From positions 1 to 32,000 of the forward strand of contig NZ_PQWO01000020.1 of the NCBI RefSeq assembly GCF_003231495.1: a DNA stretch of 32,000 nucleotides, in the 5' to 3' direction. The notes beneath the pieces were generated by a model. That model was not told the DNA's origin, searched no databases, and worked only from the letters and a program-made list of their open reading frames with translations. Made by a program: the position numbers and the translations under genes. Positions within the stretch are counted from its first letter, which is position 1. The number at the start of each line of letters is the position of its first letter. Shown here one piece after another: positions 8,304-30,412 of the stretch. Source of the stretch: Acaryochloris thomasi RCC1774. Its GTDB lineage: Bacteria; Cyanobacteriota; Cyanobacteriia; Thermosynechococcales; Thermosynechococcaceae.

Positions 8304-8408
8304 GGTGAGCGCTCGCCGTACAAAGAGAAGAAAGGAAAAAAAGAGAAAAGAAGAGCGGTCGCCGATGGGATAACCCATAAACGAACCGCTCGATGTAACA
8401 ATCTCAAA

Positions 8409-8930: not shown

Positions 8931-8941
8931 TGATGTTCTCC

Positions 8942-9388: not shown

Positions 9389-9442
9389 TGGTTTGTAAAC
9401 CTCTTAAGTGATTAAGATATAGGGGGTATTTTTTAGACCCAG

Positions 9443-9901
9443 CTAGGATTGAGCGGAAGTAACAGCGGCATCTACGATGACGGACTGGACGCCTTTAATT
9501 TCTTTCGCTAACACCTCAATTTCGTCATATTGGTCCTGTGTGACAACGGTTCCCTGAACAGTTACGAGGCCATCCTCTGCCTCGATGGTCAGGGCGCTCT
9601 CAGGAAGATTGGCCTCTAGTTTGCTGCGAACTTCACTAGCAATATCAATGTCGGTCCGACCCTCGGCATCGCCATCGTTAAAGGCATTGTTCCGCTGTTC
9701 CCGCGCTCGAATGTCTGCATCAAGCTGCTCACGGCGAATAGCGCTGGTGGCATCTTCGCTGGCCTCTTCCTGCTGCTCAGCACTCAAGGCTGGAGGATTC
9801 TCGTCACCGTCCGGTGCATCTGCGCTAGTCCGCTTCTCTTGGCAGGCGGTTGCTCCTAGGGCTAATGCTGTCCCGAGAAGTGCGATCGCAAGTTTCTTCA
9901 T
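9443..9901 (-). CDS. BON-domain (OsmY-like) lipoprotein
   Basis: From ATG 9901: MKKLAIALLGTALALGATA/C lipobox. C-terminal IASEVRSKLEANLP..LTIEAEDGLVTVQGTVVTQDQYDEIEVLAKEIKGVQSVIV fits the BON domain pattern. Confidence 0.75.
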   Translation of the reverse strand: MKKLAIALLGTALALGATACQEKRTSADAPDGDENPPALSAEQQEEASEDATSAIRREQLDADIRAREQRNNAFNDGDAEGRTDIDIASEVRSKLEANLPESALTIEAEDGLVTVQGTVVTQDQYDEIEVLAKEIKGVQSVIVDAAVTSAQS

Positions 9902-9941
9902 GATCAAATCCTTCGAATATGTGTCGATGTCTGGGGTCGTG

Positions 9942-10517
9942 CTAGTGCGAAACACTCGGCTTGTTAGCAAGCTGGTAAACGCCCCAGCCTTGAATCCCCC
10001 GTCGCGTCAAAATAGCTTCAGCCCGTCGAATGTCTTGCTCGGTACCGTCCACCGTGACTAGGTAATAGCCTTTCTGTACGTAGTCGTCGTAAACTTTGGC
10101 CTGCTCTTCAGGAATGCCCAGCCCAATTAGAGCGCCCGTTAGCCCACCAGCAGCAGCACCGATTGCACCACCCGCCACCGTGGTTGCTAGCGCCGTTGCA
10201 GTGGCCCCAGCCAACATAATCGGCCCCACGCCAGGAATGGCTAATGTTCCTAGGCCAACGAGTAGGCCTGTCAAGGTTCCAGCAGCGCCTCCGGCCGCCG
10301 CACCTGTGGCAGCACCTTCATCTGCTTTGTTGCCGGTATGCTCAGTCACGGTCACATCGGTCTCTGCCAGACGATCATTGAGTCCATCATCTTTAGCAAT
10401 GACCGAGACTTTGTCCATCGGGAACCGATATTCCTTAAGTTCGTGCAGTGCCTGCTCTGTGTCTAGTCGTCGGGCAAACACACCGATGGCCCGCTGGTGT
10501 TCTTCCTTGTTCATCAT
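9942..10517 (-). CDS. YflT-like N-domain / glycine-zipper membrane protein, paralogue 2
   Basis: Collinear with the 5561..6139 product (AIGVFARRLDTEQALHELKEYRFPMDKVSVIAKDD; GPIMLAGATATALATT; YDDYVQKGYYLVTVDG). Start at the ATGATG at 10517 with ggag upstream. The 44-aa track extension has no counterpart in paralogue 1 and is probably not translated. Confidence 0.75.
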   Translation of the reverse strand: MMNKEEHQRAIGVFARRLDTEQALHELKEYRFPMDKVSVIAKDDGLNDRLAETDVTVTEHTGNKADEGAATGAAAGGAAGTLTGLLVGLGTLAIPGVGPIMLAGATATALATTVAGGAIGAAAGGLTGALIGLGIPEEQAKVYDDYVQKGYYLVTVDGTEQDIRRAEAILTRRGIQGWGVYQLANKPSVSH

Positions 10518-10789
10518 TCCTACTCCAGTTAATTGTTGGTGAGGGACGGCTTTTGCGATACACGAAAAGACTCCGCAGACCGCAAAGGCTGCGCAAGAGT
10601 GCATCATTGAAAACCGAAAATATTGACGTCTAGATAGACTCAGCAACTCTAGTCGTTAATACACAATTAACGGTTAGAAAAGCTGGGTGCAGGTGCAGCA
10701 GAGAAACAACTTTCCTGAAGCTGCACGGGATTGACCTTGTGTTCTGCCTATAGTTTATCGAAGGGGAATGTCTGCCGGCTTCCATCCTG

Positions 10790-10831
10790 GGATAGTTTGA
10801 TAACGTAGCGGGGATCGTTCTCAGGATAGAG
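10790..10831. repeat. Intergenic motif copy A: GGATAGTTTGAT-N22-GGATAGAG
   Basis: Read directly. Same block as 12185..12225. A third related half-site, CTATAGTTTATC, lies at 10748..10759. Confidence 0.6.
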
Positions 10832-10856
10832 AGTCTTAAGGAATGCCCCCTGTGCG

Positions 10857-10895
10857 GTTCAATCGAGACTGAGTGGTGAGCTGACTCGATTGAAC
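10857..10895 (-). terminator. 11-bp perfect-stem hairpin downstream of the SDR gene
   Basis: GTTCAATCGAG-N17-CTCGATTGAAC, 27 nt after the stop at 10922. The T-run (acagcttttta) is on the plus-strand side, so the direction of action is uncertain. Confidence 0.5.
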
Positions 10896-10921
10896 ACAGC
10901 TTTTTAAGGACTCTCTAGGGA

Positions 10922-11722
10922 TTATCCCCCCGTCGCAAAGCCTGGATAGAGCGTCATCCCACCGTCAATAAACAGCGTAATGCCATGGATGTATTCTGAA
11001 TCGTCTGATGCCAGCCAAACGGCAGCTTTACCCACATCATTAGGCTCACCGATGCGATTATAGGGAATTAAATTGAGTAGCTTTTCCTTCGCTTCTGGTG
11101 TCTCCCAAGCATCTTTATTGATCGGTGTCTTGATCGCGCCTGGACCGATGCTGTTGACTCGTATTTTGTGGGGTGCTAGCTCTTGGGCCATGCTTTTCAT
11201 CAGCAGCATGACGCCACCTTTAGAGGCTGCATAGTTACAGTGTCCCGCCCAGGGAATCACCTCGTGGACTGAACTCATGCAGATGATTTTGCCCGCCGAA
11301 CAAGATTTCTCTGGAACAACACCGCGCCGAATGAACGCTTTCGCTGCTTCCCGGGCGCAAAGGAACTGTCCGGTGAGGTTGACGCTGAGCACCTTATTCC
11401 AGGCCTCTAGCGTCATTTCGGTAAGGGGCTGATCCTTTTGTAAACCTGCATTGTTGACGAGGATATCGAGGGTGCCAAAGGCTTCGTCGGTTTTGGCAAA
11501 GAGATTCAAGACCTGATCTTCTTGGCTGACGTCGGCTTGAATTGCGATCGCATCTCCCCCATTTCCCTTAATCTCATCAACCACAGCTTCAGCGCCATCA
11601 GCACTACTGGAATAGTTGACCACAACTTTTGCGCCGGCCTGAGCTAAGCAAACCGCCACGCCTGATCCAATCCCAGAACTTCCGCCGGTGACAAGGGCAA
11701 CCTGATCTTGCAAACGCTGCAT
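10922..11722 (-). CDS. SDR-family oxidoreductase, glucose 1-dehydrogenase-like
   Basis: TGGSSGIG cofactor motif, NNAG, and catalytic YAASKGG with downstream PGAIKTPIN. Overall collinear with Bacillus-type glucose 1-dehydrogenase/YdaD-like SDRs. Confidence 0.85.
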   Translation of the reverse strand: MQRLQDQVALVTGGSSGIGSGVAVCLAQAGAKVVVNYSSSADGAEAVVDEIKGNGGDAIAIQADVSQEDQVLNLFAKTDEAFGTLDILVNNAGLQKDQPLTEMTLEAWNKVLSVNLTGQFLCAREAAKAFIRRGVVPEKSCSAGKIICMSSVHEVIPWAGHCNYAASKGGVMLLMKSMAQELAPHKIRVNSIGPGAIKTPINKDAWETPEAKEKLLNLIPYNRIGEPNDVGKAAVWLASDDSEYIHGITLFIDGGMTLYPGFATGG

Positions 11723-11828
11723 ACGAATCTCCAGATAATGACAGTCACATTAAGCACAGCCTAAAACCGTTGGCCATAGATTTTCATGGATTTAGCCCTC
11801 GCCAAGCATTAGGACATTCCATGAAGAA

Positions 11829-11862
11829 CCCCATGCAGACAAGCTGATTATCCTGCATGGGG
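11829..11862 (-). terminator. 10-bp perfect-stem hairpin downstream of the csbD-like gene
   Basis: CCCCATGCAG-N14-CTGCATGGGG, 60 nt after the stop at 11923. On the minus strand it is followed by TTCTTCAT. Confidence 0.5.
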
Positions 11863-11922
11863 CACTGATTTGTTAGAGCAGAGAAAACCAACCTTAAGAT
11901 GATTTCTCCATTGACTTAAAAA

Positions 11923-12105
11923 CTAGTCAATTGCGTCTTTGACGCCATCCTTGACATCTTCTCCGGCGTGGCGAGCGGAAGCTTCAGTTTGCTTTGCTTT
12001 ACCTGCCGCTTGGTCTCCTTTGTCACCGGTTACATTGCCGAGAGCTTCCTGTGCTTTGCCCTCAACATTTTTGGCTGTAGCTTTGGCGCGATCTTCAAGA
12101 CCCAT
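11923..12105 (-). CDS. CsbD-family stress-response protein
   Basis: The 60-aa MGLEDRAKATAKNVEGKAQEALGNVTGDKGDQAAGKAKQ.. sequence is the canonical CsbD-like repeat pattern. Confidence 0.85.
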   Translation of the reverse strand: MGLEDRAKATAKNVEGKAQEALGNVTGDKGDQAAGKAKQTEASARHAGEDVKDGVKDAID

Positions 12106-12184
12106 GATGATTACCTCTATTGCGAATTAACTTGTGTGTTATTTGCACTGTACTGAGGTTTACCCAGGCTGAGGCTCTACCGCA

Positions 12185-12225
12185 GGATAGTTTGATCAGA
12201 CTCGGGAGTCTGCCTTTGGATAGAG
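12185..12225. repeat. Intergenic motif copy B: GGATAGTTTGAT-N21-GGATAGAG
   Basis: Read directly. The spacer contains a perfect 7-bp inverted repeat CAGACTC-GG-GAGTCTG. It lies in the csbD / tal-pgi divergent region. Confidence 0.6.
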
Positions 12226-12337
12226 TTCTCAAAAAGGCCGCAGTAATGTAGCTTTACGAACCCGAGTCACTTTAAAAAAGTACTTTCGTCAGGCAATGGG
12301 TGTAACGTCTGCGGCCTATCGTTCTCAGCATCGTTAA
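12226..12337 (+). pseudogene. Decayed C-terminal fragment of an AraC-family HTH regulator
   Basis: Translation FSKRPQ*CSFTNPSHFKK, then a +1 shift in the A6 run at 12274-12279, then YFRQAMGVTSAAYRSQHR*. This matches the end of AraC HTH2 (..IAxxCGFxNxSHFxKxFRxxxGxTPxxYR) but carries an in-frame stop and a frameshift. Confidence 0.4.
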
Positions 12338-12468
12338 CGCAAAGAACCAGTGCAAGATCGTCATAGTTCTTGCAGGAATGTAAAAGATTCTCTGGGGTGA
12401 TCTCGATAGTCTGTTGTCAACTTGATGGTGTCGGTGCGGTTGCCTTTACCCCCTTCTCGGAGACATGA

Positions 12469-15351
12469 ATGAGCTTATTACAGACGCCTCAGAAAAATGC
12501 GTTGCAGAACCTTCAGCACTACGGCCAATCTGTCTGGCTAGACTACATTCGCCGCTGCTCTATTGAAGGCGGTGAGCTACAGCAATTAGTAGATGAAGAA
12601 ATTCAGGGGGTAACGTCCAACCCTGCAATTTTCCAGAAAGCGATCGCAGGCAGTACCGACTACGATGCAGCCCTCTCGGCCCTGGAGCGAGACCATGATC
12701 AGGATGCGATCACGCTCTACGAACAGCTTGCCATTGCTGATATCCAAGCGGCAGCCGATATTCTGCGCCCTCTCTATAACCGCACGAATCAGCAAGATGG
12801 TTACGTTAGCCTAGAGGTTTCTCCCTATTTAGCCAATGACTCAGAGCAGAGTCTGATTGAGGCGCAGCGGCTCTGGCAGGCGGTCAATCGGCCAAATCTG
12901 ATGATCAAGGTACCGGCCACGCCTGCGGGAATTCCGGTGATTCAGCAGCTAATCAGTCAGGGAATTAACGTTAATGTGACCCTATTGTTTTCCCGAGCGG
13001 CTTACCTGGAGGTGGCGGAAGCTTATCTTTCTGGCTTAGAGGAATATGTGTCTCAGGGAGGCAGTCCGGGGCACGTGGCGAGCGTCGCGAGTTTCTTTAT
13101 CAGCCGCATCGATAGTGCTGTTGATGGCCAAGTTGCAGAGCGATTGAAGATCGCCGTGCAGGAGTCTGATGCGGAAGCGGTGGCTTTACTGCAGGGGCTG
13201 TTGGGGAAGGTTGCGATCGCAAATGCCAAACTTGTCTACCAAGACTATCTGCGGCTTTGTGAAAGCGAACGCTGGCAAGCATTAAAGGCCCAAGGCGCAC
13301 AGCCCCAGCGTCTCCTATGGGCCAGCACTGGAACGAAAAACCCTCAGTATCGGGACACGCTCTACGTCGAAGAATTAATCGGCCCTGAAACCGTCAACAC
13401 AATCCCGCCCAGTACGCTGGCCGCGTTTCGAGATCATGGGGAACCCCGGCCTAGCCTCACGGAAGCGGTGGAACAGACTGAAATTGTCATGTCGAGCTTG
13501 TCCCAAGTGGGGATTGTCTTTGAAGACATTACCGACCAGCTCTTAGGTCAAGGCGTTCAGCTCTTTCAGCAGGCCTTTGACCAACTGCTGAGTGCAGTGG
13601 AACACAAGCGTGAAGCCCAGCTTGGGAAAGCCCTCAATCGCCAGACTTACACGCTACCGGCAACGCTTTCGGCCCAGGTTCAAGCTACGCTACAGGGCTG
13701 GCAGGACAAAGGGAAAGTGCGACAGCTATGGGCAATGGACTCAACCCTATGGACGGGTGCAGATGAGAGTCAATGGCTGGGCTGGCTGGGCACCACAGAA
13801 GACCAGCTTGCTCATCTCAATGACCTCACCCAACTAGCACAGGAGGTCAAAGATCTAGCGCTAACCCACGTTTTGCTATTAGGTATGGGGGGATCGTCTC
13901 TCTGCCCAGAGGTGATGAAGTTGACCTTTGGGCAAGCAGAGGGCTATCCAGAACTGCTGGTGTTGGACTCCACCGATCCGGCTCAGGTGCAGGCCATCAC
14001 CCAGCAGATCGATTTGAAGCGGACGCTGTTCATTGTGTCTAGCAAGTCCGGCAGCACGCTGGAGCCGAACATTTTTCAGCAGTACTTTTTCGATTTAGTC
14101 CAGAAAGAGATGGGGGCTGAGGTCGCTGGCTCTCGCTTTATCGCCGTCACCGATCCTGGCTCCAAGCTACAGGAGGTTGCTCACAAAAACCGCTTCCGGC
14201 ACTACTTTTTTGGGATCCCGAGTATTGGCGGGCGCTACTCCGCGCTGTCCAACTTCGGCATGGTGCCCGCTGCCTGTCTAGGAATTGATGTCGCTCATTT
14301 CTTAGATTCCGCAGAGGAAATGGTACATTCCTGCGCTGCTTCGGTTCCTGCAATAGATAATCCAGGGGTGGTGCTGGGCATCATTCTGGGCAAGGCAGCC
14401 CAACAGGGACGGGATAAACTAACGCTGATTGCGTCACCCGGTATTGCTGATATTGGCGCTTGGTTAGAGCAGCTGTTGGCAGAGTCCACCGGCAAAGAAG
14501 GCTGTGGCATTATTCCTGTGGATCAGGAGCCGCTAGGTCCGCCTCTGAACTATGGAGCCGATCGCATTTTTGCCTACATCCGTTTAGAGGCGGCCCCCGA
14601 TCCGGCACAGGATAAAGCGGTCGCAGCCCTAGAAGCAGCGGGACAGCCCGTCATCCAGATTCAAGTCACGGATGCCTATCAGCTGGGTCAAGAATTTTTC
14701 CGTTGGGAGATGGCCACTGCGGTTGCTGGATCGGTTCTGGGGATTCACGCCTTTAACCAACCAGACGTAGAAGCAAGTAAGATTGCGACGCGCCAGCTCA
14801 CTGATGCCTATGAAGAAACGGGGGAACTCTTAGTAGAGACGCCCCTGTTCCAAGAGGGAGGGCTACAGCTCTTTACTGATGTCGAGAATGCGGCTGCGCT
14901 GACGGGAATTGCTGGAACTCTGTCACTGTGCGGCTTTCTGAAAGCGCACCTGAAGCGTCTGCGGGCCAATGATTACTTTGCCCTGCTGGCCTATATTCAG
15001 ATGAATAAAGCTCACCAGCAGCAGCTTCAGGGCATCAGAAAAGCAATTTGCGATCGCAAGCAGGTCGCCACCTGTCTGGGCTTTGGTCCTCGCTTTCTCC
15101 ACTCCACCGGCCAGGCTTACAAAGGCGGTCCCAATTCTGGCGTCTTTCTGCAAATCACCTGCGAAGACGAGCGAGATGTCCCCATCCCTGGCCATCGCTA
15201 CAGTTTTGGGGTGGTCAAAGCCGCCCAAGCCCGTGGAGACTTTCAGGTCCTGGCCAAACGCAAACGACGGGTTCTGCGCGTCCATTTAGGGACGGATGTA
15301 GAGGTTGGTCTCAGAACTCTGCGCGTTGCTATTCAGGGTGCACTGCCGTAA
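12469..15351 (+). CDS. Bifunctional transaldolase / glucose-6-phosphate isomerase
   Basis: 960 aa. The N-terminal ~380 aa is a long-form transaldolase (GQSVWLDYIRR..VTSNPAIF..IKVPAT). The C-terminal half is PGI (LLLGMGGSSL, VSSKSGSTLEP, GGRYSALS). This is a known fused architecture. Confidence 0.9.
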   Translation: MSLLQTPQKNALQNLQHYGQSVWLDYIRRCSIEGGELQQLVDEEIQGVTSNPAIFQKAIAGSTDYDAALSALERDHDQDAITLYEQLAIADIQAAADILRPLYNRTNQQDGYVSLEVSPYLANDSEQSLIEAQRLWQAVNRPNLMIKVPATPAGIPVIQQLISQGINVNVTLLFSRAAYLEVAEAYLSGLEEYVSQGGSPGHVASVASFFISRIDSAVDGQVAERLKIAVQESDAEAVALLQGLLGKVAIANAKLVYQDYLRLCESERWQALKAQGAQPQRLLWASTGTKNPQYRDTLYVEELIGPETVNTIPPSTLAAFRDHGEPRPSLTEAVEQTEIVMSSLSQVGIVFEDITDQLLGQGVQLFQQAFDQLLSAVEHKREAQLGKALNRQTYTLPATLSAQVQATLQGWQDKGKVRQLWAMDSTLWTGADESQWLGWLGTTEDQLAHLNDLTQLAQEVKDLALTHVLLLGMGGSSLCPEVMKLTFGQAEGYPELLVLDSTDPAQVQAITQQIDLKRTLFIVSSKSGSTLEPNIFQQYFFDLVQKEMGAEVAGSRFIAVTDPGSKLQEVAHKNRFRHYFFGIPSIGGRYSALSNFGMVPAACLGIDVAHFLDSAEEMVHSCAASVPAIDNPGVVLGIILGKAAQQGRDKLTLIASPGIADIGAWLEQLLAESTGKEGCGIIPVDQEPLGPPLNYGADRIFAYIRLEAAPDPAQDKAVAALEAAGQPVIQIQVTDAYQLGQEFFRWEMATAVAGSVLGIHAFNQPDVEASKIATRQLTDAYEETGELLVETPLFQEGGLQLFTDVENAAALTGIAGTLSLCGFLKAHLKRLRANDYFALLAYIQMNKAHQQQLQGIRKAICDRKQVATCLGFGPRFLHSTGQAYKGGPNSGVFLQITCEDERDVPIPGHRYSFGVVKAAQARGDFQVLAKRKRRVLRVHLGTDVEVGLRTLRVAIQGALP

Positions 15352-20072: not shown

Positions 20073-20591
20073 TCAGGCAACATCCAAGTGAGCAATCGGC
20101 CTTGTTTCGAACGAGACACCTTTTTGGGCATCTTCTGAGTAAACATGAAAAGTGTGGCCGGGTTCAAGGCATGTGACCCGATGAATAAAATTGTCGTAGC
20201 GTCCGATCTGCCCCAAACACCAAGTCGAGTCCGTGGCGCCAAAAAGCTGGCTGCCGGTATACTGCAGGCCAATGGCGCTGTGGGTAAAGTATTCCATCTC
20301 AAAAATACCGCTGATCACATAGTAGAAAGAGAACGCGGGATGGCCATGAATAGGCGTGACGGCCTGTTGATCCCATCGGATCACCAAAGCTTCAAAGCCT
20401 CTCTGGGCAGCTTCCTTGGTAATTGGATTGCGCGTATACGCCGAGGCGGCAAAGGCAAGATGATTTAGCTCAGGGAATTGGCAGGCGGTGATTTGATGCT
20501 GTAGCCAAGGTCCAAGACTAGAGAAGTCTGTGGCCTGGTCTCGATGGTGGAGAAATTGCTGAAATAAAGTTTCCAGGTTTGAGGGCGGCAT
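20073..20591 (-). CDS. Cysteine dioxygenase type I family cupin (Arg-type)
   Basis: 172 aa. AYTRNPI (the Y-x-R-N of bona fide CDOs), cupin motif 1 TPIHGHP, and a second motif IHRV..HVYS, collinear with rat CDO and B. subtilis CdoA as I remember them. Its ATG overlaps the upstream stop (TAATG). Confidence 0.75.
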   Translation of the reverse strand: MPPSNLETLFQQFLHHRDQATDFSSLGPWLQHQITACQFPELNHLAFAASAYTRNPITKEAAQRGFEALVIRWDQQAVTPIHGHPAFSFYYVISGIFEMEYFTHSAIGLQYTGSQLFGATDSTWCLGQIGRYDNFIHRVTCLEPGHTFHVYSEDAQKGVSFETRPIAHLDVA

Positions 20592-21997
20592 TAAACGGCT
20601 TCCTGTTCTAGAGTCTGGGCAGTGGCAACCAGTGCCTCAAAAAAGGTCTCTAAATCTTCTGAGCTCGTTTGGTTATTGCAAATGACGAGACGAAAGACGG
20701 TGCTCCCATCCAGCTCGGCATAGTTCACCATTGCGATTCTTTGCTCCAGTAACGCGGCCCGAATTCTTAGCGTCAGGTCGTTGGCGCACTGCTGCGGCTC
20801 TTTAGGAATGTACTGAAAACAAAGGTTGAGGCTGACACGAGGCGTGACGAGCCTCAATGATGGGTGGGCGTCAATAATGGACTCTGCATAAGCTGCCAAC
20901 TCAAAATATCGATCAATCAGAGCTTCCCAGCCTCTATCCCCCAAGTGCTTCCAGGCTAGCCACAGCTTCACTGCATCGACTCGCCGCCCACAGTGCATCG
21001 TGCTCAGGCCCAGGTCAACCGGATCTTCGTCTCCCGCATGGAATAGATATTCGGTGTCGCTGGCGGTAAAAGTGTCCTGCATCAGGCCGCGATGTTTGAC
21101 CAGCAGCACTGAGCAAACAAGGGATAGCCCCATCATTTTGTGGGCATCCCAGACAACCGAGTCGGCGAGTTCAGCGCCCGCCATTAGGTGCCGATGGCTA
21201 GCGCTCAAAAGGACGCCGCCGCCCCAGGAACCGTCAATGTGAAACCAGAGATTTTCCCGTTGCGCCACTGCAGCAATTTCAGTGAAGGGGTCAAAAACGC
21301 CTCTGACCGTTGTTCCGGCGGTGCCGACGACAAAAAAGGGCTGGGCACCTTGGGCATGGGCTTTGGCGATCAAAGCCTCTAGCTCTGTGACAATCATGGC
21401 TCCGTTTTCGTCAACGGGAACTTTCCAAACCTGTCTTGCGCCCAAACCTAACAGTTGCGCGGCTTTGACGAAAGAGTAGTGCGCTTCAGCAGAGACAAAG
21501 GCAATCAGCGGTGGGGCACCGAGCATCCCGATTTGCTTAGCGCTGGGTAAGGCTTTGTGGGTTGCGATCGCAACTGCCATCAGATTGCCGTTACTGCCCC
21601 CGGTCGTGAACTGTCCCTCAGGTTCAGAGAAGCCCACAAAGCTGCCCATTTTGGCAATCAAAGCATTTTCAATGAGCGTCGCGGCCGGTGCCACCTCATA
21701 GGTATACATTGACGTATTCGTCGCGCTGGTGAGGATCTCTCCCATAAAACCCGCCGCATTGAACCCGCCCCAAAGCTGATTGAAATAGGTCGGGTGAGCT
21801 GTTTTGACGGCATAGCTCAAATAGTTTGAGATTTCTGCATGCAAGTGTTCTAATGATGTACCAACGGCGGGCAATTCAAGAGAAAGCTGCTGCTCCAACT
21901 CTGCAGGTTCAAGTGGCTCAGATTGTGCATCAGCAAAAAACTGTTCGAGCTGATGCAAGAGACCCAGATAGTCGGATGCTTTGAACATAGGCGGCAA
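20591..21997 (-). CDS. Group II PLP-dependent decarboxylase, cysteine-sulfinate decarboxylase (CSAD/GAD)-like
   Basis: 468 aa. HPTYFNQLWGG..NTSMYTYEVAP and the PLP-lysine motif WDAHKMMGLSLVCSVLLV are collinear with animal GAD/CSAD. The start is TTG 21997 or ATG 21988. Confidence 0.85.
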   Translation of the reverse strand: MPPMFKASDYLGLLHQLEQFFADAQSEPLEPAELEQQLSLELPAVGTSLEHLHAEISNYLSYAVKTAHPTYFNQLWGGFNAAGFMGEILTSATNTSMYTYEVAPAATLIENALIAKMGSFVGFSEPEGQFTTGGSNGNLMAVAIATHKALPSAKQIGMLGAPPLIAFVSAEAHYSFVKAAQLLGLGARQVWKVPVDENGAMIVTELEALIAKAHAQGAQPFFVVGTAGTTVRGVFDPFTEIAAVAQRENLWFHIDGSWGGGVLLSASHRHLMAGAELADSVVWDAHKMMGLSLVCSVLLVKHRGLMQDTFTASDTEYLFHAGDEDPVDLGLSTMHCGRRVDAVKLWLAWKHLGDRGWEALIDRYFELAAYAESIIDAHPSLRLVTPRVSLNLCFQYIPKEPQQCANDLTLRIRAALLEQRIAMVNYAELDGSTVFRLVICNNQTSSEDLETFFEALVATAQTLEQEAV

Positions 21998-22688: not shown

Positions 22689-24041
22689 CTACAAAGAGCG
22701 AACCGTTAGCACCTGTGGCGGCACCGAATCAGGTGGATAGATCAACTCAACCTTGACATGCTGGGTGGCCTTCGGGGCGATCGACAACGTAGCTAGAGGT
22801 TTCCCCTGCTCCCCACAGCGTTGCACCAAATGAAAATACTGTGGCCTAGAAATACTCCTGCTAGACTGACCGTCAGGAAAACTAAGCTTGATCGTCCCCC
22901 GGAAGCAGGGCGGTCCAGCAGGCGATTTGAGAAAACGGAGTCCTTTGCGCGTCAGTCGGTCTTCTTTAATTGGCGTCTGCAACGCAATGGTAACGGTCTT
23001 GGAGCGCTTAGTGGAATTGTGCAGCGGCAGGTCTAAATCATACTTGAGACCATAGTTGCCATTCGAGAGATAGGCCGTATCGCCATAGCGCGCCAGCATC
23101 GGAGCGCTTTGTATCTGCTGAGTGCCCAGGGTGCCCCGATGTAGCGAATTGATCACGTAAGAGAACCCCTTGCCCGATTTAGGCACCTTTAGCACATCAG
23201 AACGAGAGCTATCCGTCAGCGTTCCTCGCCACTCGCCACCCTTTGAAACGCCTGCGACTCGACCATAAATAAACTTCTGTCCCTTGAAGTCTAGCGGTGA
23301 AGGCACTTTATCTCGGGGCCTGATCAATTCTCCTTTTGCCAGCAGCAGTTTCCAGGTCGCTAAGCTGGGGCCGCTGTAGTTTGCCTTACCATGCTTCGCC
23401 ATACTGGCGACATAGAGCGGGCCATTACTCCGTAATCGGATCCAGGTGGTGCGACTGTTGCTGGGCGGAATCGCACGATTGACCAGCATGTAGCTTTCTC
23501 GAGGAGGAACGACCACACCCGAAGACCAGCCGGGCTGACTCTGATCACGCAGAATAACGCCCGCAATCCGACTACCGGGTCCAGAAAATACTTTGCCCGT
23601 TGGATCTTTAATCTGAGCGGCCAGCGGAACAAAGGGCGCATGAGCGCTGCTCAAATAGCTTGCCGCCTGGAGGACCTTCACTTCAACGGGTTTACTGGTG
23701 GGGTTGTGGAGCAAAACCCCTTGATAGAGAGAGCGATTGCCCCGTCGGGACCAACGCCGGGTCACATGATGTGCAAAAACATAGAACTCTCCCGTCAAAG
23801 AATAGTTTAGATGGGCCTCAGGCGATGCTTTGCCTGATTCGGGAAAGGTAGACAGCAAAATCCCCCCTGTATTAATCAGTTCAGGACTATTACTGTGCAA
23901 GAAAGGGCGGTTATCTAGCGCTCCAGGTAATGCTCGAACTTCCTGTGGAATAACGACCTCTGAACTCGCAGCAAGAACGGGTGCTGCCTGGGACAAAAGC
24001 AAGGATGCTAGAAAAATAGATGCCATATGGAGCCAGATCAC
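22689..24041 (-). CDS. Secreted cyanobacterial protein, probably DUF3370 family
   Basis: 450 aa with a signal peptide. The N-terminal QEVRALPGALDNRPFLHSNSPELINTGGILLSTFP resembles my memory of DUF3370, and the length fits that family. An alternative ATG start is at 24026. Confidence 0.55.
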   Translation of the reverse strand: MIWLHMASIFLASLLLSQAAPVLAASSEVVIPQEVRALPGALDNRPFLHSNSPELINTGGILLSTFPESGKASPEAHLNYSLTGEFYVFAHHVTRRWSRRGNRSLYQGVLLHNPTSKPVEVKVLQAASYLSSAHAPFVPLAAQIKDPTGKVFSGPGSRIAGVILRDQSQPGWSSGVVVPPRESYMLVNRAIPPSNSRTTWIRLRSNGPLYVASMAKHGKANYSGPSLATWKLLLAKGELIRPRDKVPSPLDFKGQKFIYGRVAGVSKGGEWRGTLTDSSRSDVLKVPKSGKGFSYVINSLHRGTLGTQQIQSAPMLARYGDTAYLSNGNYGLKYDLDLPLHNSTKRSKTVTIALQTPIKEDRLTRKGLRFLKSPAGPPCFRGTIKLSFPDGQSSRSISRPQYFHLVQRCGEQGKPLATLSIAPKATQHVKVELIYPPDSVPPQVLTVRSL

Positions 24042-24595: not shown

Positions 24596-25594
24596 CTAGG
24601 GAGCTGATGCTGCGTTCTCAGGTTCCTGCATCATCATTTCTGATTTGGACCCTGGCTTCTTGGACCCGCCGAGACTTGCAATCAGCACACCCAGAATAAT
24701 GATGATTAAGGTTCCGACCTGAATGCTAGAGGGACGCTCTCCATTGAGCAAAAAGGCGTAGGTGACGCCAAAGATGGGCGAAATCACCGTCAGACGACCA
24801 ATGGTTCTAGAGTCTAATCGCTCATTGGAGGCGTACCACAGAAACTGGGCCAGTACGATCACAACTAGCGAATAGACAGACATAATAATCCACAGTTTGC
24901 CGCTAAAGGCATCGCCAAAATGATTGGGGCCAAATAGCTTCATGGCGATGAAGAAAAAGATCACCGAGGAGAGCAGGTTGCGAGAAAACACGACAACGGG
25001 CAACGGTGCCGCTTTTTGTACCATCAGTTTGTTCACGAGGGCCGATACTGCAAACACAAGGGTAGAGAGCAGGATTAAGAAGTCTCCCTGGTTGATTTGA
25101 AAGTTGCTGGTTTTAAGTGCGATCGCAACGACCCCTACCCCAATCAGCGAAAACCCAAACCACTCCATCGGTCGAATCCGTTTGCCCAAAATCATCGCCC
25201 CGGCCAGGGCAAATAACACTGGCCCTAACCGTCCCAGCAGGACCGCATTCGTCACGGTCGTAAACTGCAGGCCCAAGAAAATCAGCGCCGATAACAGCGT
25301 TGCCAAACATCCATTCACAAATAGGCCGATTTGTACCTTCAGCTTGAGCGCCTTGAATTCTCGGATAATTCTGCCCAAGCCAAACCAAGTGCCCACCGAG
25401 ATCGCAGCACAGAGATTGCCCACAAACAGAATGTTGCAAAACGAGATGGGGTGTACCGCTCCCCCCCCTAACTCTGAGCCTTTAGCAATCAAAAAGGCAA
25501 TCAGAGCTGGACGCGCCGCCGCCAGAGCGCGAGATGCAATCAGCATTGCCTGAGGATTAAGACGGTGAGGCTGGGTCGCCAGCATTTCGTTCAT
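24596..25594 (-). CDS. EamA/DMT-superfamily transporter
   Basis: 332 aa with about 10 predicted TM helices in two similar halves, typical of EamA-domain permeases. Confidence 0.8.
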   Translation of the reverse strand: MNEMLATQPHRLNPQAMLIASRALAAARPALIAFLIAKGSELGGGAVHPISFCNILFVGNLCAAISVGTWFGLGRIIREFKALKLKVQIGLFVNGCLATLLSALIFLGLQFTTVTNAVLLGRLGPVLFALAGAMILGKRIRPMEWFGFSLIGVGVVAIALKTSNFQINQGDFLILLSTLVFAVSALVNKLMVQKAAPLPVVVFSRNLLSSVIFFFIAMKLFGPNHFGDAFSGKLWIIMSVYSLVVIVLAQFLWYASNERLDSRTIGRLTVISPIFGVTYAFLLNGERPSSIQVGTLIIIILGVLIASLGGSKKPGSKSEMMMQEPENAASAP

Positions 25595-25830
25595 TGGGGG
25601 CAGGTCCGGCAGACAACTTAACCTCGTAGTTTACTGAATCATGGGGGGCCAAGAATGAGATAAGGCTGACAGAATAACGAATACAAGCCGAGTCGGACCT
25701 CTTTTCATGCAAAAGTGGTCAATTTTATGAGCGAATCAGCAGCAATCTCTCAGGTCTGCTTCAGCGTCAGCCCAGGTTAAGACAACAGGATGGGAGCGTC
25801 CCTGTGACATCGTTCTCATTCACTGCAGTT

Positions 25831-27549
25831 ATGGCTCCCCTCAAGATTCTGTTTGTCAACTGTACCTTGAAGCAATCTCCAGAGATCAGCAATACTGAAG
25901 CGCTCTGGAATTATGTTGCAGAACGATACCGCCAAAAGGGTTGTCAGGTAGAACAGGTTAGAAGCATTGATTTCAAGTTTCCCATCGAAATCATGCCGGA
26001 GGGTCGGGATGCATTGCTACCGCTATTTGAGCAAGTTCAAGCAACAGATATTTTGATTGTGGGACTCTCGGGTACCCGATCATCGGCCTATCAGAGGCTG
26101 CTTGAATATCTTCAGGATATCTGCCAAATTCGTGCCGAGCCAACCACGGGACAATCCCCCGTCTACAACAAGGTTTTTGGTGTGGTGATGGTGAGCGGAG
26201 CCCCTCACGACATTGCTCAGACTTGCTATGAATTTAGCCAGTTGGGATGTGTTAATCCACCGAATAATGCCGTCACTTGGCTGCCGTCGGTAGAGTTTAG
26301 CGAGGACTTTATGGCGGCAAACGGCAAGCAGCCGATCCAGGTGAATCAGGAGGCACGGCTGCTGGTGGAACATTCGGTTGCGATCGCAACCCTCCTCCAA
26401 AGCTCTCCCCTCACCGCCAACCAACGGGCCGCAACCCACGAAACCCAGGCGATTGCAGACCAGGCTACGCCCGCAAGTCCAACGCTGCTGACGCCAAAAA
26501 CCGTCCGCACAGACGATCATCTCGACGGCCTTGACCCGCATCGTCTAACCAAGCGAATCTGGACCGTGATGCAGGAAGGAATACGGCGAGGATTTACCTT
26601 TAAGGTTTTTAGCCTAGAGGACCGAACCTTTCAGGCCGAGCGAGAGGGAAAAGGCTTTCTCTACAAAATCTATCCGGGGCATTTCTCTTTTCGCAGGCAG
26701 TACGAGGACTACGACTACGAGCAGTTTAAATCGCGTAAGCTAGCGCTGATGCAGCAAGACGGCCTATCCATACCCACCTCCTATGGCACCTTTAAGACCT
26801 TTGCCGAGATTCCCCTAGAGACACTCTCTTACCCGCTGGTGGCCAAACCTGATTCAGGCTCCCTCAGCGAAAATGTGTTTCCGAATTTAGGTACGGTTGC
26901 TCAGCTTCGGCAGGCAACCGCCGTCATTGAGGCCAGTGGCGGCGTGATTAAACTGGAGTCGCACATTGCCGGGCGTGATTACCGGGTACTGATTATTAAT
27001 CATCAGTATGCCGGATGCGTGGAGCGACGGCCCGCCAATATCACCGGCGACGGAGAACGGACGATTTTAGAGCTGTTTCAGGCGCGGAATCAAGAAGAGG
27101 GAAGAGGCGATCGCAACGAAGCCCACACGACCCTGCATCAACTCGTCTTTGACCACACCAGCCGCCAACTTTTACACAGAGCAAACTACACCCTTGAGAC
27201 CGTCTTGCCTGCAGGCAAAATGTTCTTCCTACAGAAGAAAATTACGGCATCGACGGGGGCTGACTACGTAGACTGCACCGATCGGCTCCATCCCGACACG
27301 ATTAAAGACTGCATTGCGTTCTCCCACCATTTTTCAACCCTGACTCTGGGCTTTGATCTGATGACGATGGATCTCTCACGCCCGCTTGCTGAAACAGGCG
27401 GGGCCTTCAATGAATATAACTTTCTGCCCTATGTTGACCTCCACGAAAACTGTAATATCGGTCAACAGCGGCCGGTCTGTCAGTTGATCTGGGACTATAT
27501 CGAAGCGCATGCAGCCCAGATTGTCACCTCTGATTTCAACGTCTTCTAA
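25831..27549 (+). CDS. Fusion protein: flavodoxin-like (FMN-reductase-type) N-domain + ATP-grasp amino-acid ligase domain (cyanophycin synthetase G-domain-like)
   Basis: N-terminus from ATG 25831: MAPLKILFVNCTLKQSPEISNTEAL..PVYNKVFGVVMVSG, the flavodoxin-family/NADPH-FMN-reductase pattern. C-terminus: LVAKPDSGS.., GRDYRVLIIN..VERRPANITGDGERTILELF..N.EEGRGD, TGADYVDCTDRLHPD, GFDLMT.DLSRPLAETGGAFNEYN, collinear with the CphA ATP-grasp region. No Mur-ligase domain. Confidence 0.8.
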   Translation: MAPLKILFVNCTLKQSPEISNTEALWNYVAERYRQKGCQVEQVRSIDFKFPIEIMPEGRDALLPLFEQVQATDILIVGLSGTRSSAYQRLLEYLQDICQIRAEPTTGQSPVYNKVFGVVMVSGAPHDIAQTCYEFSQLGCVNPPNNAVTWLPSVEFSEDFMAANGKQPIQVNQEARLLVEHSVAIATLLQSSPLTANQRAATHETQAIADQATPASPTLLTPKTVRTDDHLDGLDPHRLTKRIWTVMQEGIRRGFTFKVFSLEDRTFQAEREGKGFLYKIYPGHFSFRRQYEDYDYEQFKSRKLALMQQDGLSIPTSYGTFKTFAEIPLETLSYPLVAKPDSGSLSENVFPNLGTVAQLRQATAVIEASGGVIKLESHIAGRDYRVLIINHQYAGCVERRPANITGDGERTILELFQARNQEEGRGDRNEAHTTLHQLVFDHTSRQLLHRANYTLETVLPAGKMFFLQKKITASTGADYVDCTDRLHPDTIKDCIAFSHHFSTLTLGFDLMTMDLSRPLAETGGAFNEYNFLPYVDLHENCNIGQQRPVCQLIWDYIEAHAAQIVTSDFNVF

Positions 27550-27618: not shown

Positions 27619-29961
27619 ATGACTTCATCTAGTTTCGTCTCTCAGATCAAACAACAAATAACGACGCTCACGAATCCCGATATCGCGCCGCCCGATGTCT
27701 CTTTGACCAATTGCGATCGCGAACCGATTCACATCCCGAGCGCGATTCAACCCCACGGCGTGTTGCTAACCTTCACCGAAGCAGATCTCACCCTGCTCCA
27801 GGTCAGCCGAAACGTCACCACGGTAATAGGGCTAACGCCAGAGCAGCTATGGGGCCAGCCCCTCACGCACCTATTTGCAGCAGAACAGCTTGAGCAGATC
27901 CGAGGCTGTCTGACAGCCGATTTTGAACACGTCAATCCCCTGAGATTATCGGTTGAGGTTGACGGTCAAACCCGCTCCTTTGGCGGCATTGTCCACCGTG
28001 CGGACACCGTTGTCGTTTTAGAACTCGAACCCCTTCAAGCATCAGATGAAATTGACTTTTTTGACTTCTATCGATTCGTTAAGACCCCCATTAGTCAGCT
28101 GCAGAGAACCCAGACCGTTGCTGAACTCTGCCACACTGCTGCGGCTGAGATCCGTCGGATCACTGGGTTTGATCGGGTGATGATCTACCGCTTCGATCAG
28201 GCAGGGGCCGGAGACGTAATTGCAGAAGATCGGCGTGCTGACCTCAAAGCTTTCTTAGGGCTACACTATCCCGCCACCGATATCCCTCAGCAGGCCAAAC
28301 ATCTCTATCGTTTGAATCTACTGCGGCTCATTCCTGACGCCGTTTATGAGCCGGTCCCCCTAGAGCCACAGAATAATCCTGTGACCGATGCGCCTTTAGA
28401 TATGAGTCTATCGGTCCTGCGTAGCGTCTCTTCTGTGCACCGAGAATACTTAGGCAATATGGGCGTACGGGCTTCCATGTCGATTTCTCTGCTGAAGAAT
28501 CAACAGCTTTGGGGACTGATTGCCTGTCACCACTGCAGCCCCAAACTGCTCTCTTATGAGCTGCGGACCATCTGTGAATTCCTAGGGCAGTCCATTTCTT
28601 TAGAGCTAGCGACAAAATCTGAGACGGAAGATCTGGATGATCAGGTGCGGCTACAGTCGATTCAGGCCAACTTTGTTAAAGCTAGCGCTCACTGCCAGAC
28701 GCTGGCTGACGTTCTGAGTCACAATCCTGATAATTTGATGGCCTTGGGTAGGGCCTCGGGCCTAATTTTCTATGAAGGTGATGCGATCATCAGCTTTGGC
28801 CAAACGCCACCGGAACCGGTGATCAGCAAGCTTCTTGACTGGGTAGAGCCGCAGTTTGAGGCAGACGCTGTGCTTTACACAACGGCGTCTTTGGGGCTGC
28901 GTTGTCCAGAAATGGCTGACTATCGCCAAGTCGCCAGCGGTTTGATGGCGCTGCGGATTTCTCGCGTTCAAAAGATTTATCTGCTGTGGCTGCGGCCCGA
29001 GGTTGTGCAAACGGTGCATTGGGGCGGCCAGCAAAAGCAGCAGGAGGGCGTGGATGCTGACGGTCTAACCTACCTGTCACCCAGGAAGTCCTTTGAGCGC
29101 TGGCAGGAGACGGTACAGATGCGATCGCTTCCCTGGAAAGCCTGTGAACAGGAAGCGGCCCTAGAGCTGCGCAGCACAATTATCGGGGTTGTGCTGCAGA
29201 AGTCCGATGAGCTGGCTTTGCTCAATGCAGATCTGGAGCGCAGCAATAGCGAACTCGATTCCTTTGCCTATGTCGCCTCCCATGACCTCAAAGAACCGCT
29301 GCGGGGCATTCATAACTACTCTAGTTTTCTGATCGAAGACTACGGCGATCAGTTAGGAGAAGAGGGGCAACATAAGCTAGAGACCTTGGTGCGGCTGGCG
29401 CAGCGCATGGAGGATTTAATCAGCTCTTTGCTTCACTACTCGCGGTTGGGGCGTGCGGAGCTGGTTTTGCACAGGACTGATATGGGCGAAGTGGTGACAG
29501 AGGTGCTAGACGTCATTAAGATCAGTCAGCCGGAGCCGATTGAGTTTCGCATCCCTCGGCCACTGCCGACCTTGGCTTGCGATCGCATCCGCATCAGCGA
29601 GCTGTTTACTAATTTGATCAGCAACGCCATCAAGTACAACGATAAGCCACACAAATGGATTGAAATGGGCTACGTGAGCACAGATGAAGACCGTGCGACT
29701 TTACCCAGCGCTCTGCAGCAGGCTGGCACCGTTTTCTACGTTCGAGATAACGGCATTGGGATTCGAGACCGGCACTTGGAGAACGTGTTTAAGATTTTCA
29801 AACGTCTTCATGCGCCCGGGCGCTACGGTGGCGGCACGGGCGCAGGGCTCACCATCGTCAAAAAAATCGTAGAGCGACATGGGGGTGAGATCATCATTGA
29901 GTCAGCCTACGGGGAAGGCAGCACCTTTTACTTCAGCTTGGGCGAGGTTGAACATGTATAA
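27619..29961 (+). CDS. bphP: Bacteriophytochrome-type (biliverdin-class) phytochrome histidine kinase
   Basis: 780 aa with PAS-GAF-PHY-HisKA-HATPase order. N-terminal Cys32 in LTNCDREPIHIPSAIQPHG. GAF motifs DIPQQAKHLYRLN and RSVSSVHREYLGNMGV, where Val sits at the position of the Cph1-type chromophore Cys. H-box ASHDLKEPLR. Confidence 0.9.
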   Translation: MTSSSFVSQIKQQITTLTNPDIAPPDVSLTNCDREPIHIPSAIQPHGVLLTFTEADLTLLQVSRNVTTVIGLTPEQLWGQPLTHLFAAEQLEQIRGCLTADFEHVNPLRLSVEVDGQTRSFGGIVHRADTVVVLELEPLQASDEIDFFDFYRFVKTPISQLQRTQTVAELCHTAAAEIRRITGFDRVMIYRFDQAGAGDVIAEDRRADLKAFLGLHYPATDIPQQAKHLYRLNLLRLIPDAVYEPVPLEPQNNPVTDAPLDMSLSVLRSVSSVHREYLGNMGVRASMSISLLKNQQLWGLIACHHCSPKLLSYELRTICEFLGQSISLELATKSETEDLDDQVRLQSIQANFVKASAHCQTLADVLSHNPDNLMALGRASGLIFYEGDAIISFGQTPPEPVISKLLDWVEPQFEADAVLYTTASLGLRCPEMADYRQVASGLMALRISRVQKIYLLWLRPEVVQTVHWGGQQKQQEGVDADGLTYLSPRKSFERWQETVQMRSLPWKACEQEAALELRSTIIGVVLQKSDELALLNADLERSNSELDSFAYVASHDLKEPLRGIHNYSSFLIEDYGDQLGEEGQHKLETLVRLAQRMEDLISSLLHYSRLGRAELVLHRTDMGEVVTEVLDVIKISQPEPIEFRIPRPLPTLACDRIRISELFTNLISNAIKYNDKPHKWIEMGYVSTDEDRATLPSALQQAGTVFYVRDNGIGIRDRHLENVFKIFKRLHAPGRYGGGTGAGLTIVKKIVERHGGEIIIESAYGEGSTFYFSLGEVEHV

Positions 29962-30412
29962 ACAGCCATCTCTTTCTCTACTGGTGGTGGAAGACAGCAA
30001 CGAAGACTTTGAGGCATTCCGACGAATTGTCAATGAAGTTGGGACAATGGACTTATCGATCGTTCGCTGCCATGACGGGGACGACGCCCTAGAGCATTTG
30101 CAGCAGAGGCAGGCGGTTCCCCAGCCGCCTTTGCCGGACGTCATTGTCTTAGACCTCAACCTGCCGGGGACAGATGGCCGTGAGGTTATTGCAGAAGTTA
30201 AGCAGAATGATAAACTGAAGACGATACCCATTGTGGTTTTGACGACTTCGTCTAATCCTAAAGATGTGGAAGCCTGTTACCGTTTCGGCGCTAATAGCTA
30301 CATGCTCAAGTCAATGGATATCCGTTTATTCAAAGCCTCTATTCAACAGTTTTTAGACTTCTGGTTTAAGGCGACGGTTTTACCCTCATCAAATCAGGAA
30401 TCGCGACCTTAA
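29954..30412 (+). CDS. Single-domain response regulator (Rcp-like, phytochrome-associated)
   Basis: From ATG 29954 (ATGTATAA overlaps the kinase stop): SLLVVEDSNEDFEAF.., VIVLDLNLPGTDG, IPIVVLTTS, GANSYMLKS. Receiver domain only. The track ORF start at 29879 lies inside the kinase gene. Confidence 0.85.
   Translation: MYKQPSLSLLVVEDSNEDFEAFRRIVNEVGTMDLSIVRCHDGDDALEHLQQRQAVPQPPLPDVIVLDLNLPGTDGREVIAEVKQNDKLKTIPIVVLTTSSNPKDVEACYRFGANSYMLKSMDIRLFKASIQQFLDFWFKATVLPSSNQESRP

Follow-up and report, generated by a model that had tools for sequence, protein, structure and literature searches.

A RosB-like flavodoxin domain fused to a cyanophycin-synthetase-type ATP-grasp ligase, encoded near genes of taurine synthesis in Acaryochloris thomasi and other cyanobacteria

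This report concerns a gene within a 32,000-nucleotide stretch of DNA from the cyanobacterium Acaryochloris thomasi RCC1774 (contig NZ_PQWO01000020.1, positions 1 to 32,000 of the forward strand), a stretch that I will call the window. The gene (25831..27549, + strand) encodes a protein of 572 amino acids (aa), in which a flavodoxin-like domain related to RosB is followed by an ATP-grasp ligase domain of the type found as the G domain of cyanophycin synthetase (CphA). The family to which the protein belongs is restricted to cyanobacteria, and this two-domain enzyme is not described in the literature or in the curated families that I found. The residues that contact ATP, magnesium and the acyl-phosphate are invariant in the family, the pocket that receives aspartate in CphA is altered in a consistent way, and the gene recurs beside genes encoding a decarboxylase and a dioxygenase of the kinds that make taurine. 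I read the protein as an amide-forming carboxylate-amine ligase that would use hypotaurine or taurine, supplied by the dioxygenase and decarboxylase, as the nucleophile and join it to a further carboxylate, and I put the probability of this reading at about one half.

The fusion gene and its family

The open reading frame (ORF) on the + strand runs to 27549 from either a GTG codon at 25804 or an ATG codon at 25831, giving 581 or 572 aa. The shorter form is the likely product, because the ATG is where the alignment of 51 full-length homologues sets in, most of these starting within a few residues of it (the N-terminal sequence is MAPLKILFVNCTLK). The existing database records, PZD71205.1 in GenBank and WP_146242401.1 in RefSeq, begin at the GTG codon and so list 581 aa. 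GenBank calls the protein 'Cyanophycin synthetase' and RefSeq calls it 'NAD(P)H-dependent oxidoreductase'. Each name covers one half of the protein, and both should be corrected.

AlphaFold2, run on the family alignment, gave a model (mean predicted local distance difference test score, pLDDT, of 85.6) that divides the protein into a flavodoxin-like alpha/beta domain (aa 1-212, 25831..26466), a linker (aa ~213-240, 26467..26550) whose residues 213-220 are disordered, with pLDDT below 50, and an ATP-grasp module (aa ~241-572, 26551..27546) equal to the whole G domain of CphA. A preliminary description of the window had proposed that one 572-aa ORF beginning at ATG 25831 joins these two kinds of domain, and the ORF itself, the profile matches, and the matches to solved structures and folds all confirm it. 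That the two halves might have been joined by a frameshift or an error of assembly was entertained as well and is rejected, as 51 full-length fusions align from end to end.

The same description regarded the fusion as an orphan, which it is not. A search of a large protein database gave about 55 fusions of full length (48-80% identity), together with about 14 shorter proteins that have the ATP-grasp part alone. All are cyanobacterial, and all are annotated either as 'hypothetical' or as 'NAD(P)H-dependent oxidoreductase'. When 185,579 species were scanned, each represented by one genome, 29 loci came up, again all cyanobacterial and many of them from metagenome-assembled genomes, from Leptolyngbyaceae, Symploca, Caldora, Spirulina, Cyanothece, Elainellaceae, Pseudanabaenales and Phormidesmis. 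NCBIfam scans and literature searches found no curated family, no paper on the architecture and no characterized member.

The active site of the ATP-grasp domain

Several lines of comparison place the ligase half with the G domain of CphA. NCBIfam models of cyanophycin synthetase match aa 305-557 to model positions ~220-470, which belong to the G domain, and the scores against the CphA1 models (TIGR02068 / NF010623) are 149-152 bits, as against cutoffs of 850 and 877, so by these models the protein is not a CphA1. Weaker matches connect it to the C-terminal domain of GshAB (106 bits, cutoff 425) and to N-acetylglutaminylglutamine synthetase (TIGR03103; 63 bits, cutoff 569). A search of PDB sequences finds, for the ATP-grasp half, CphA1 (7lg5, E=9e-30) and CphA2 (1e-25). 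By structure, Foldseek ranks CphA1, CphA2 and GshF at the top, with about 330 columns aligned to the G domains 8fxi_C and 7lgn_B at a root-mean-square deviation of 4-5 Å, and it matches the fold to CphA, GshF, LysX/ArgX, RimK, PsnB and Ddl with a probability of 1.00. Pfam and NCBIfam scans detected no homology to the Mur ligases or to the N domain of CphA. The protein ends with its G-like domain, and the three-domain (N-G-M) architecture of CphA is lacking. The preliminary description had seen the ligase half as a CphA G domain without the N and M domains, and the profile, structure and fold searches bear it out.

The active site can be read residue by residue against that of TeCphA1, whose G domain comprises residues 162-487. 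There K220 and K261 contact ATP, H267 lies in the P-loop, R309 stabilizes the acyl-phosphate, D431 and E450 are ligands of magnesium, and G456 forms the oxyanion hole; R323 and N394 hold the beta-carboxylate of the aspartate that comes in as nucleophile, and R458 holds its alpha-carboxylate (PMC9427784). I examined conservation at the equivalent positions in 57 family sequences, short forms included, taking these experimentally defined residues as the reference. The ATP lysines (K300 and K339), the acyl-phosphate arginine (R385) and the magnesium ligands (D509, E528 and N530) are invariant in all 57. The E-x-N ligands that had been noted earlier are therefore present as E528-Y-N530, and what had been called a stand-alone ligase of the CphA G type with intact catalytic residues stands on sequence, fold and conservation alike. 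ATP-dependent ligation is, judged from these residues, the most likely activity of the fusion protein.

The residues that recognize the nucleophile are another matter. CphA R323 is retained as R399 in all 57 sequences. CphA R458 is replaced by an aspartate, D536, in 56 of the 57, in a part of the alignment that is free of gaps and anchored by the pattern E-x-N-x-x-P...H. N394 has become T472, the P-loop H267 has become L345, and the oxyanion glycine G456 has become Y534, and the position of the primer-contacting Glu215' of CphA is still acidic (D295). The full set R323/N394/R458 by which CphA recognizes aspartate is thus not found. What appears to be left is a site for the side-chain acid of the nucleophile beside an alpha-carboxylate site that has been lost and reversed in charge. 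Hypotaurine and taurine are aspartate analogues without an alpha-carboxylate, in which a sulfinate or sulfonate stands where aspartate has its beta-carboxylate, and they would suit such a pocket; beta-alanine would fit the same description.

An exhaustive phmmer search found the combination R/D (or K/D) at these two positions in about 74 of the approximately 150 best representatives and the CphA-type R/R in 38, and the R/D signature sets the present family apart from CphA-like R/R sequences. About 70 of the representatives with R/D or K/D are non-cyanobacterial. NCBIfam scans of ten relatives with the R/D signature gave none that reached the cutoff of a curated family.

The domain therefore resembles the G domains of CphA1 (PDB 7lg5 and 7wae, the latter TeCphA1 with bound Asp) and CphA2 (7ta5, 8fxi) in its ATP-grasp sub-architecture, collinear over some 330 residues, and in its ATP lysines, acyl-phosphate arginine, D/E/N magnesium ligands and the arginine for the side-chain acid of the nucleophile. 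Unlike CphA, the fusion protein lacks the N (anchor) domain and the Mur-ligase M domain, has the substitutions R458 to D, N394 to T, His267 to L and Gly456 to Y, and is encoded among genes of the taurine pathway rather than of nitrogen storage. The next closest ATP-grasp modules are those at the C-terminus of GshF/GshAB (PDB 3ln6, 3ln7) and in N-acetylglutaminylglutamine synthetase (TIGR03103), enzymes that make small peptides rather than polymers and whose ATP-grasp modules are also fused to another enzyme domain. The partners there are gamma-glutamylcysteine ligase and GNAT, respectively, whereas here the partner is a flavodoxin-like domain.

Taurine-pathway genes and the ligase

Two genes on the - strand lie 3.8 kb upstream of the ligase in the window. 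The first (20591..21997) encodes a pyridoxal-phosphate-dependent (PLP) decarboxylase of 468 aa, whose best match in PDB is human cysteine sulfinic acid decarboxylase (CSAD; 1.7e-96), with GADL1 also among the top matches. A taurine pathway of cysteine dioxygenase (CDO) and CSAD in Synechococcus sp. PCC 7335 was reportedly described by Agnello et al. in 2013. The window enzyme is 63% identical to the decarboxylase that adjoins the ligase in that strain, and it carries the aromatic-x19-S-x-Y motif of CSAD selectivity in the form W-x19-S-x-Y (W-S-Y). This form occurs in 14 of the 15 decarboxylases that neighbor the ligase (all 14 match the motif search, the window enzyme included), and it is the motif reported for the characterized CSAD of PCC 7335 (bioRxiv 10.64898/2026.08.27.747329).

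The second gene (20073..20591) encodes a protein of 172 aa, 100% identical to C1752_07476, and its start overlaps the stop codon of the decarboxylase (TAATG). By sequence its nature is obscure: Pfam offers a sub-threshold match to Cupin_7 and nothing else, neither NCBIfam nor single-sequence or profile searches against PDB returned a match to a thiol dioxygenase, and a profile-profile comparison with the CDO_I-like family aligned the expected residues at a probability of 10%. By predicted structure (pLDDT 90.9) it is much clearer. The top 40 Foldseek matches are all 3-mercaptopropionate dioxygenase (MDO) or CDO, the latter both bacterial and mammalian, with template-modeling (TM) scores of 0.73-0.77. 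In 45 homologues, Y51-T-R53, H81, H83, H136, H148 and Y150 are invariant, and these I take to correspond to Y58-T-R60, H86/H88/H140 and H155/Y157 of rat CDO. The protein thus has, on its modeled fold and its residues, the cupin fold, the three histidines, the tyrosine and the Arg60-type residue of a thiol dioxygenase, and I consider this combination decisive for predicting a CDO-type enzyme.

The small dioxygenase belongs to a family of its own, consisting of proteins of about 170 aa in some 50 clusters, all cyanobacterial, which is missed by the Pfam CDO_I model, by NCBIfam and by sequence profiles drawn from PDB. This is a gap in annotation.

The 236 bp between the ligase and the gene that diverges from it (25595..25830) separate it from an EamA/DMT transporter of 332 aa (24596..25594, - strand; Pfam EamA, 1.6e-21). 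The coordinates and the Pfam match establish the divergent pair with a shared intergenic region that had been described earlier; a promoter scan of the 236 bp found no match to the sigma-70 consensus.

Elsewhere some of these genes lie side by side. In PCC 7335 and in an unrelated 2.5-Mb contig from Leptolyngbyaceae, the fusion gene adjoins a PF00282 PLP decarboxylase, a CDO_I-like protein and a second, GshB/RimK-like ATP-grasp protein are adjacent, and EamA is present. PCC 7335 has in addition a protein of about 170 aa without a Pfam match adjoining the decarboxylase, and the Leptolyngbyaceae contig has a GNAT. A locus with a short form of the ligase contains the same ~170-aa protein, the decarboxylase and EamA. 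The ligase stands beside the decarboxylase and EamA in PCC 7335 and in loci L001 and L005, the small dioxygenase being found in PCC 7335 and L005. The products in the window are orthologous to those of the clusters, at 52-71% identity for the decarboxylase, the small protein and EamA, the last at 67-71% to the EamA proteins of PCC 7335, L001 and L005. The 32-kb window itself contains neither the second ATP-grasp nor the CDO_I-like gene nor the GNAT.

De novo clustering of ORFs was applied to 31 non-redundant loci, many of which lie on short contigs. The decarboxylase recurs at 15, the small protein at 10, the CDO_I-like protein at 9, the second ATP-grasp at 8 and the GNAT at 4, and EamA, at 15 of the 31, is likewise a conserved partner of the ligase. 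This pattern of genes is repeated in the metagenome loci L035, L038 and L040. Linkage of the ligase to the CDO-CSAD taurine genes is therefore recurrent and not universal.

Some of the clusters extend further. Those at L003:7672-9698 and L001:7325-9826, and also L008, L015, L021, L023 and L027, carry a larger CDO_I-like dioxygenase (250-274 aa) and the GshB/RimK-like ATP-grasp, and some add a GNAT of the phosphinothricin/arsinothricin type. The CDO_I-like protein matches the CDO of B. subtilis (1.6e-12), and the GNAT is similar to phosphinothricin/arsinothricin N-acetyltransferases (3e-34, short of the cutoff). The three additional genes suggest a product made in several steps. DEP-domain proteins, standing alone or fused to a mechanosensitive-channel module, also occur nearby (L001:6688-7227, L003:16472-18601, L005:14689-16668 and L008 at about 18391), and their recurrence may hint at an osmotic connection of the cluster.

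The coupling of decarboxylase and ligase is physical in one case. A single polypeptide of 831 aa, P0071, consists of a W-S-Y decarboxylase and an ATP-grasp domain 40% identical to that of the window, with aspartate at the position of D536. The fusion thus ties the two activities together in a separate lineage. A metagenome scan for distant relatives returned mostly the same cyanobacterial family and P0071 once more, at 99% identity, on a 17-kb metagenome contig of about 61% GC (SMVB01315894.1, L041). This is the same fusion on a longer contig, not an independent second one.

The contig around the decarboxylase::ATP-grasp fusion (6038-8533) has genes related to sulfur, selenium and redox chemistry over positions 3153-13781. 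They include a mycoredoxin-fused protein resembling thioredoxin reductase (3153-4568), a PALP enzyme resembling cystathionine-beta-synthase and cysteine or cysteate synthase (4393-5580), and a glycosyltransferase (8569-9540) above the cutoff for SenB, the selenosugar synthase of selenoneine (376 versus 300 bits). A second disulfide reductase is encoded there as well, along with an MFS transporter and a methyltransferase.

The flavodoxin-like domain

The sole Pfam match of the fusion protein is to FMN_red (PF03358), at aa 5-137 with 25.1 bits, just above the cutoff of 24. A phmmer search of PDB with the protein matched 5mji over aa 4-211 (E=4e-16), and Foldseek, given the AlphaFold2 model, matched the same entry (E=2.6e-14, TM score 0.69, 28% identity), with the flavin mononucleotide (FMN) reductase SsuE ranking after it at 1e-7. 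The entry is titled 'BRAMP domain protein', and I recognized it as RosB through the Foldseek description; a search of the literature on 'BRAMP domain' and 5MJI produced nothing informative. Profile and fold together place the N domain in the PF03358 superfamily, in a branch with RosB. A stand-alone PF03358 protein of 221 aa, P0083, with 35% identity, bridges RosB and the N domain of the fusion. Used alone as the query of a word-indexed search, the N domain retrieved just two proteins.

In FMN reductases of the flavodoxin fold, the loops after strands beta1, beta3 and beta4 form the flavin site. The phosphate-loop motif after beta1, N10-C-T-L-K-x-S-P-E-x-S-N-T, is kept throughout the family. 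Most members read 'GTPVxxGxRSS' after beta3 and have a 'VGDAxGG' loop after beta4, but in the window protein and in P0001, its closest relative, both loops are shortened by deletions ('GL---SGTRSS' and 'VS-----GAP'). The PCC 7335 orthologue has its flavin loops intact. Compared with the family, P0083 and RosB, the window protein is 3 residues short after beta3 and about 4 short after beta4. On the evidence of these loops the N domain probably binds flavin in most members of the family, flavin binding being plausible for the family and doubtful for the window protein. The preliminary description had remarked on a VGLSGTRSS loop and had supposed that the domain might be a non-redox scaffold. The loop is there, as a 3-residue deletion specific to the lineage rather than a family trait, and the idea of a scaffold fits the sub-lineage of the window, with its two shortened loops, and not the bulk of the family, which keeps them.

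RosB, 8-demethyl-8-aminoriboflavin-5'-phosphate (AFP) synthase, is a stand-alone tetrameric enzyme of the flavodoxin fold that takes FMN as a substrate in the biosynthesis of roseoflavin (PMC9516700). The N domain shares with it (PDB 5mji, 5mld) the fold and a similar phosphate-loop motif, and differs in being fused to a ligase and, in the window protein, in having two shortened loops at the flavin site. Activity as an AFP synthase is not indicated, given the 28% identity and the sulfur amino-acid genes nearby. No gene annotated as rosA or rosC was found among the Pfam-scanned ORFs of the window, a result obtained with no dedicated search for RosA or RosC.

The N-terminal module is an extra domain, since aa 241-572 match the size of the G domain of CphA and the short forms begin near residue 248; the homology to RosB and FMN_red agrees with this, as the preliminary description had proposed. 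The alternative that it is the ordinary pre-ATP-grasp subdomain of the ligase is rejected in view of the short forms, whose 321-330 aa match the ATP-grasp part alone, and the fold match to RosB.

In a neighbor-joining tree built from the ATP-grasp domain, the outer positions are taken by the decarboxylase fusion and by relatives of 330-350 aa that stand alone; all flavodoxin fusions form one clade, and the cyanobacterial forms without the N domain are nested inside this clade. No remnants of an N domain were found upstream of the short-form genes, and the possibility of a split gene, whose N domain would be encoded close by, was rejected on that ground. The nested positions and the lack of remnants indicate a single gain of the N domain and at least one later loss. 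The ATP-grasp half is also the better conserved (58-82% identity, as against 35-66% for the N domain). Eroded in the lineage of A. thomasi and wholly lost in another, the N domain would be an accessory module, dispensable for ligation.

Other genes of the window

Between the CDO/CSAD pair and the EamA/ligase pair lies a gene for a DUF3370 protein (22689-24041, - strand; Pfam E=3e-163), with an apparent hydrophobic, signal-like stretch at its N-terminus. This arrangement is peculiar to the A. thomasi genome. The region 27619-30412 (+) begins 70 bp downstream of the ligase with a bacteriophytochrome histidine kinase (PAS_2-GAF-PHY-HisKA-HATPase), which is followed by an overlapping response regulator; in other genomes the two do not accompany the cluster. 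A 960-aa ORF (12469-15351, +) combines a transaldolase domain (PF00923) with one resembling phosphoglucose isomerase (PF00342). After it come a class I fructose-bisphosphatase and an aldolase of the DeoC/LacD family, and at L005, L025 and L028 a fructose-bisphosphatase recurs close to the ligase cluster. Finally, a 528-aa protein (6792-8378, -) in which an FAD-dependent oxidoreductase (DAO) is fused to a C-terminal Rieske [2Fe-2S] domain is encoded amid small proteins of the stress type (YflT, BON and YetF).

Discussion

If the ligase acts on hypotaurine or taurine, then the small thiol dioxygenase would convert cysteine to cysteine sulfinate, and the W-S-Y decarboxylase would remove the alpha-carboxylate to give hypotaurine, with further oxidation to taurine possible. 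The ATP-grasp domain would phosphorylate the carboxylate of an acyl donor, for which amino acids, their N-acyl derivatives and short peptides are candidates (the preliminary description had thought of a gamma-glutamyl or beta-aspartyl partner), and the amino group of hypotaurine or taurine would attack the acyl-phosphate to yield an N-acyl-(hypo)taurine conjugate. R399 would hold the sulfinate or sulfonate, as CphA R323 holds the beta-carboxylate of aspartate, and D536 would take the place of the arginine that binds the alpha-carboxylate, the decarboxylated substrate having none. Transport of the product, or of a precursor, across the membrane would fall to the EamA permease, and an accessory role to the RosB-like domain, gained once in cyanobacteria. 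The preliminary description had ventured a link to the CDO/decarboxylase pair as a speculation, and of all its claims this is now the best supported, by synteny, by the decarboxylase::ATP-grasp fusion and by a pocket that suggests a decarboxylated analogue of aspartate.

The most serious alternative is that the enzyme works in the same pathway at another step, ligating cysteine sulfinate or cysteate before decarboxylation, or ligating beta-alanine derived from aspartate, in a chemistry like that of carnosine or pantothenate. I consider this unlikely. Neither gene fusion nor synteny fixes the order of reactions, R399 could hold a carboxylate as well as a sulfinate, and GADL1, an enzyme of the aromatic-S-Y type that turned up among the closest solved relatives of the decarboxylase, also decarboxylates aspartate. 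The exchange of the alpha-carboxylate arginine for D536, however, argues against an alpha-amino acid such as cysteine sulfinate as the nucleophile, and the recurrent dioxygenase genes point to oxidized cysteine rather than to aspartate. W-S-Y, for its part, is reported as the motif of a bona fide CSAD.

Less probable still is a cationic amine (a polyamine, agmatine or a derivative of a basic amino acid) that has no connection with the decarboxylase and is bound to D536, in which case the ligase would cluster with the taurine genes because of common regulation, as in osmotic or oxidative stress, and not because of a common pathway. A change of charge from arginine to aspartate is what a cationic ligand would lead one to expect, several loci lack both the CSAD and CDO genes, and PCC 7335 has an arginine decarboxylase about 6 kb away. 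That gene does not recur among the neighbors, however, the invariant R399 implies an anionic group on the nucleophile, and the decarboxylase to which a ligase is physically fused is of the W-S-Y type.

The two database names amount to two further readings, and I give very little credence to either. The GenBank name would imply a minimal CphA, making poly-Asp or some similar polymer. This is favored by the G domains of CphA1 and CphA2 as best matches in sequence and structure and by the acidic D295, but it would have to do without N and M domains, with 150 bits against a cutoff of 850, with N394, R458 and His267 replaced, and in a context where no cyanophycinase or CphA was seen and the neighbors are sulfur amino-acid genes. 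An enzyme that is mainly a flavin oxidoreductase, as in RefSeq, with the ATP-grasp part structural or regulatory, would account for the FMN_red match, the fold matches to RosB and SsuE and the retained phosphate loop, but not for invariant catalytic residues in the better conserved half or for an N domain that a whole sub-clade has lost and the window lineage has let erode.

Several points weigh against hypotaurine or taurine as the nucleophile. In the window itself, DUF3370 and EamA separate the ligase from the decarboxylase, and three loci with full 10-kb flanks (L013, L029 and L032) lack every one of the partner genes, although the Spirulina genome from which the first of these comes (SIO3F2) encodes the small dioxygenase on another contig; the same holds for P01_G01_bin.54, from which a further ligase locus without partners (L018) comes. 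The reading of the pocket depends on an alignment to one liganded structure of CphA; the Arg-to-Asp change could mean that a cationic group, such as that of a diamine, is bound; and with His267 changed to Leu and Gly456 to Tyr, the acyl-phosphate chemistry differs from that of CphA. The decarboxylase fusion demonstrates coupling and is silent on the order of reactions, the neighbor-joining tree carries no support values, and the searches turned up no characterized member of the family, no curated family and no paper.

A fuller picture may be drawn from hypotaurine or taurine as the nucleophile, though I hold it tentatively, as a possibility with the odds against it. Marine filamentous cyanobacteria might make a new metabolite, N-acyl-hypotaurine or N-acyl-taurine, which would be a sulfinate or sulfonate resembling a dipeptide, by way of an ATP-grasp enzyme of the cyanophycin/glutathione-synthetase lineage with a re-tooled aspartate pocket. 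The RosB-like domain might couple ligation to a redox step (oxidation of sulfinate to sulfonate, or redox gating), the second dioxygenase, the GshB-like ligase and the PAT-type acetyltransferase of the extended clusters might elaborate the product, and EamA might export it.

The closest precedent for such a pathway is the CDO-CSAD route of PCC 7335, with which the window shares a W-x19-S-x-Y decarboxylase (at the 63% identity given above) and a thiol dioxygenase, here translationally coupled to it. The published route, so far as the papers searched tell, ends at taurine, and none of them mentions an associated ligase or EamA. Bacterial synthesis of taurine, which a few cyanobacteria make, has been described as a matter of two enzymes with taurine as the end. 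Literature searches that paired hypotaurine or taurine with ATP-grasp, or were aimed at glutamyl- and aspartyl-taurine, turned up no ATP-dependent route in microbes. A conserved ligase and permease within a taurine cluster would imply that in these cyanobacteria hypotaurine or taurine is a building block and not only an end product, the conjugate serving possibly as an osmolyte, an antioxidant or an exported compound. For the enzymes themselves, the ATP-grasp scaffold of CphA and GshF would have been re-specified for an amine without an alpha-carboxylate, and R399 and D536 would be the residues by which to recognize it.

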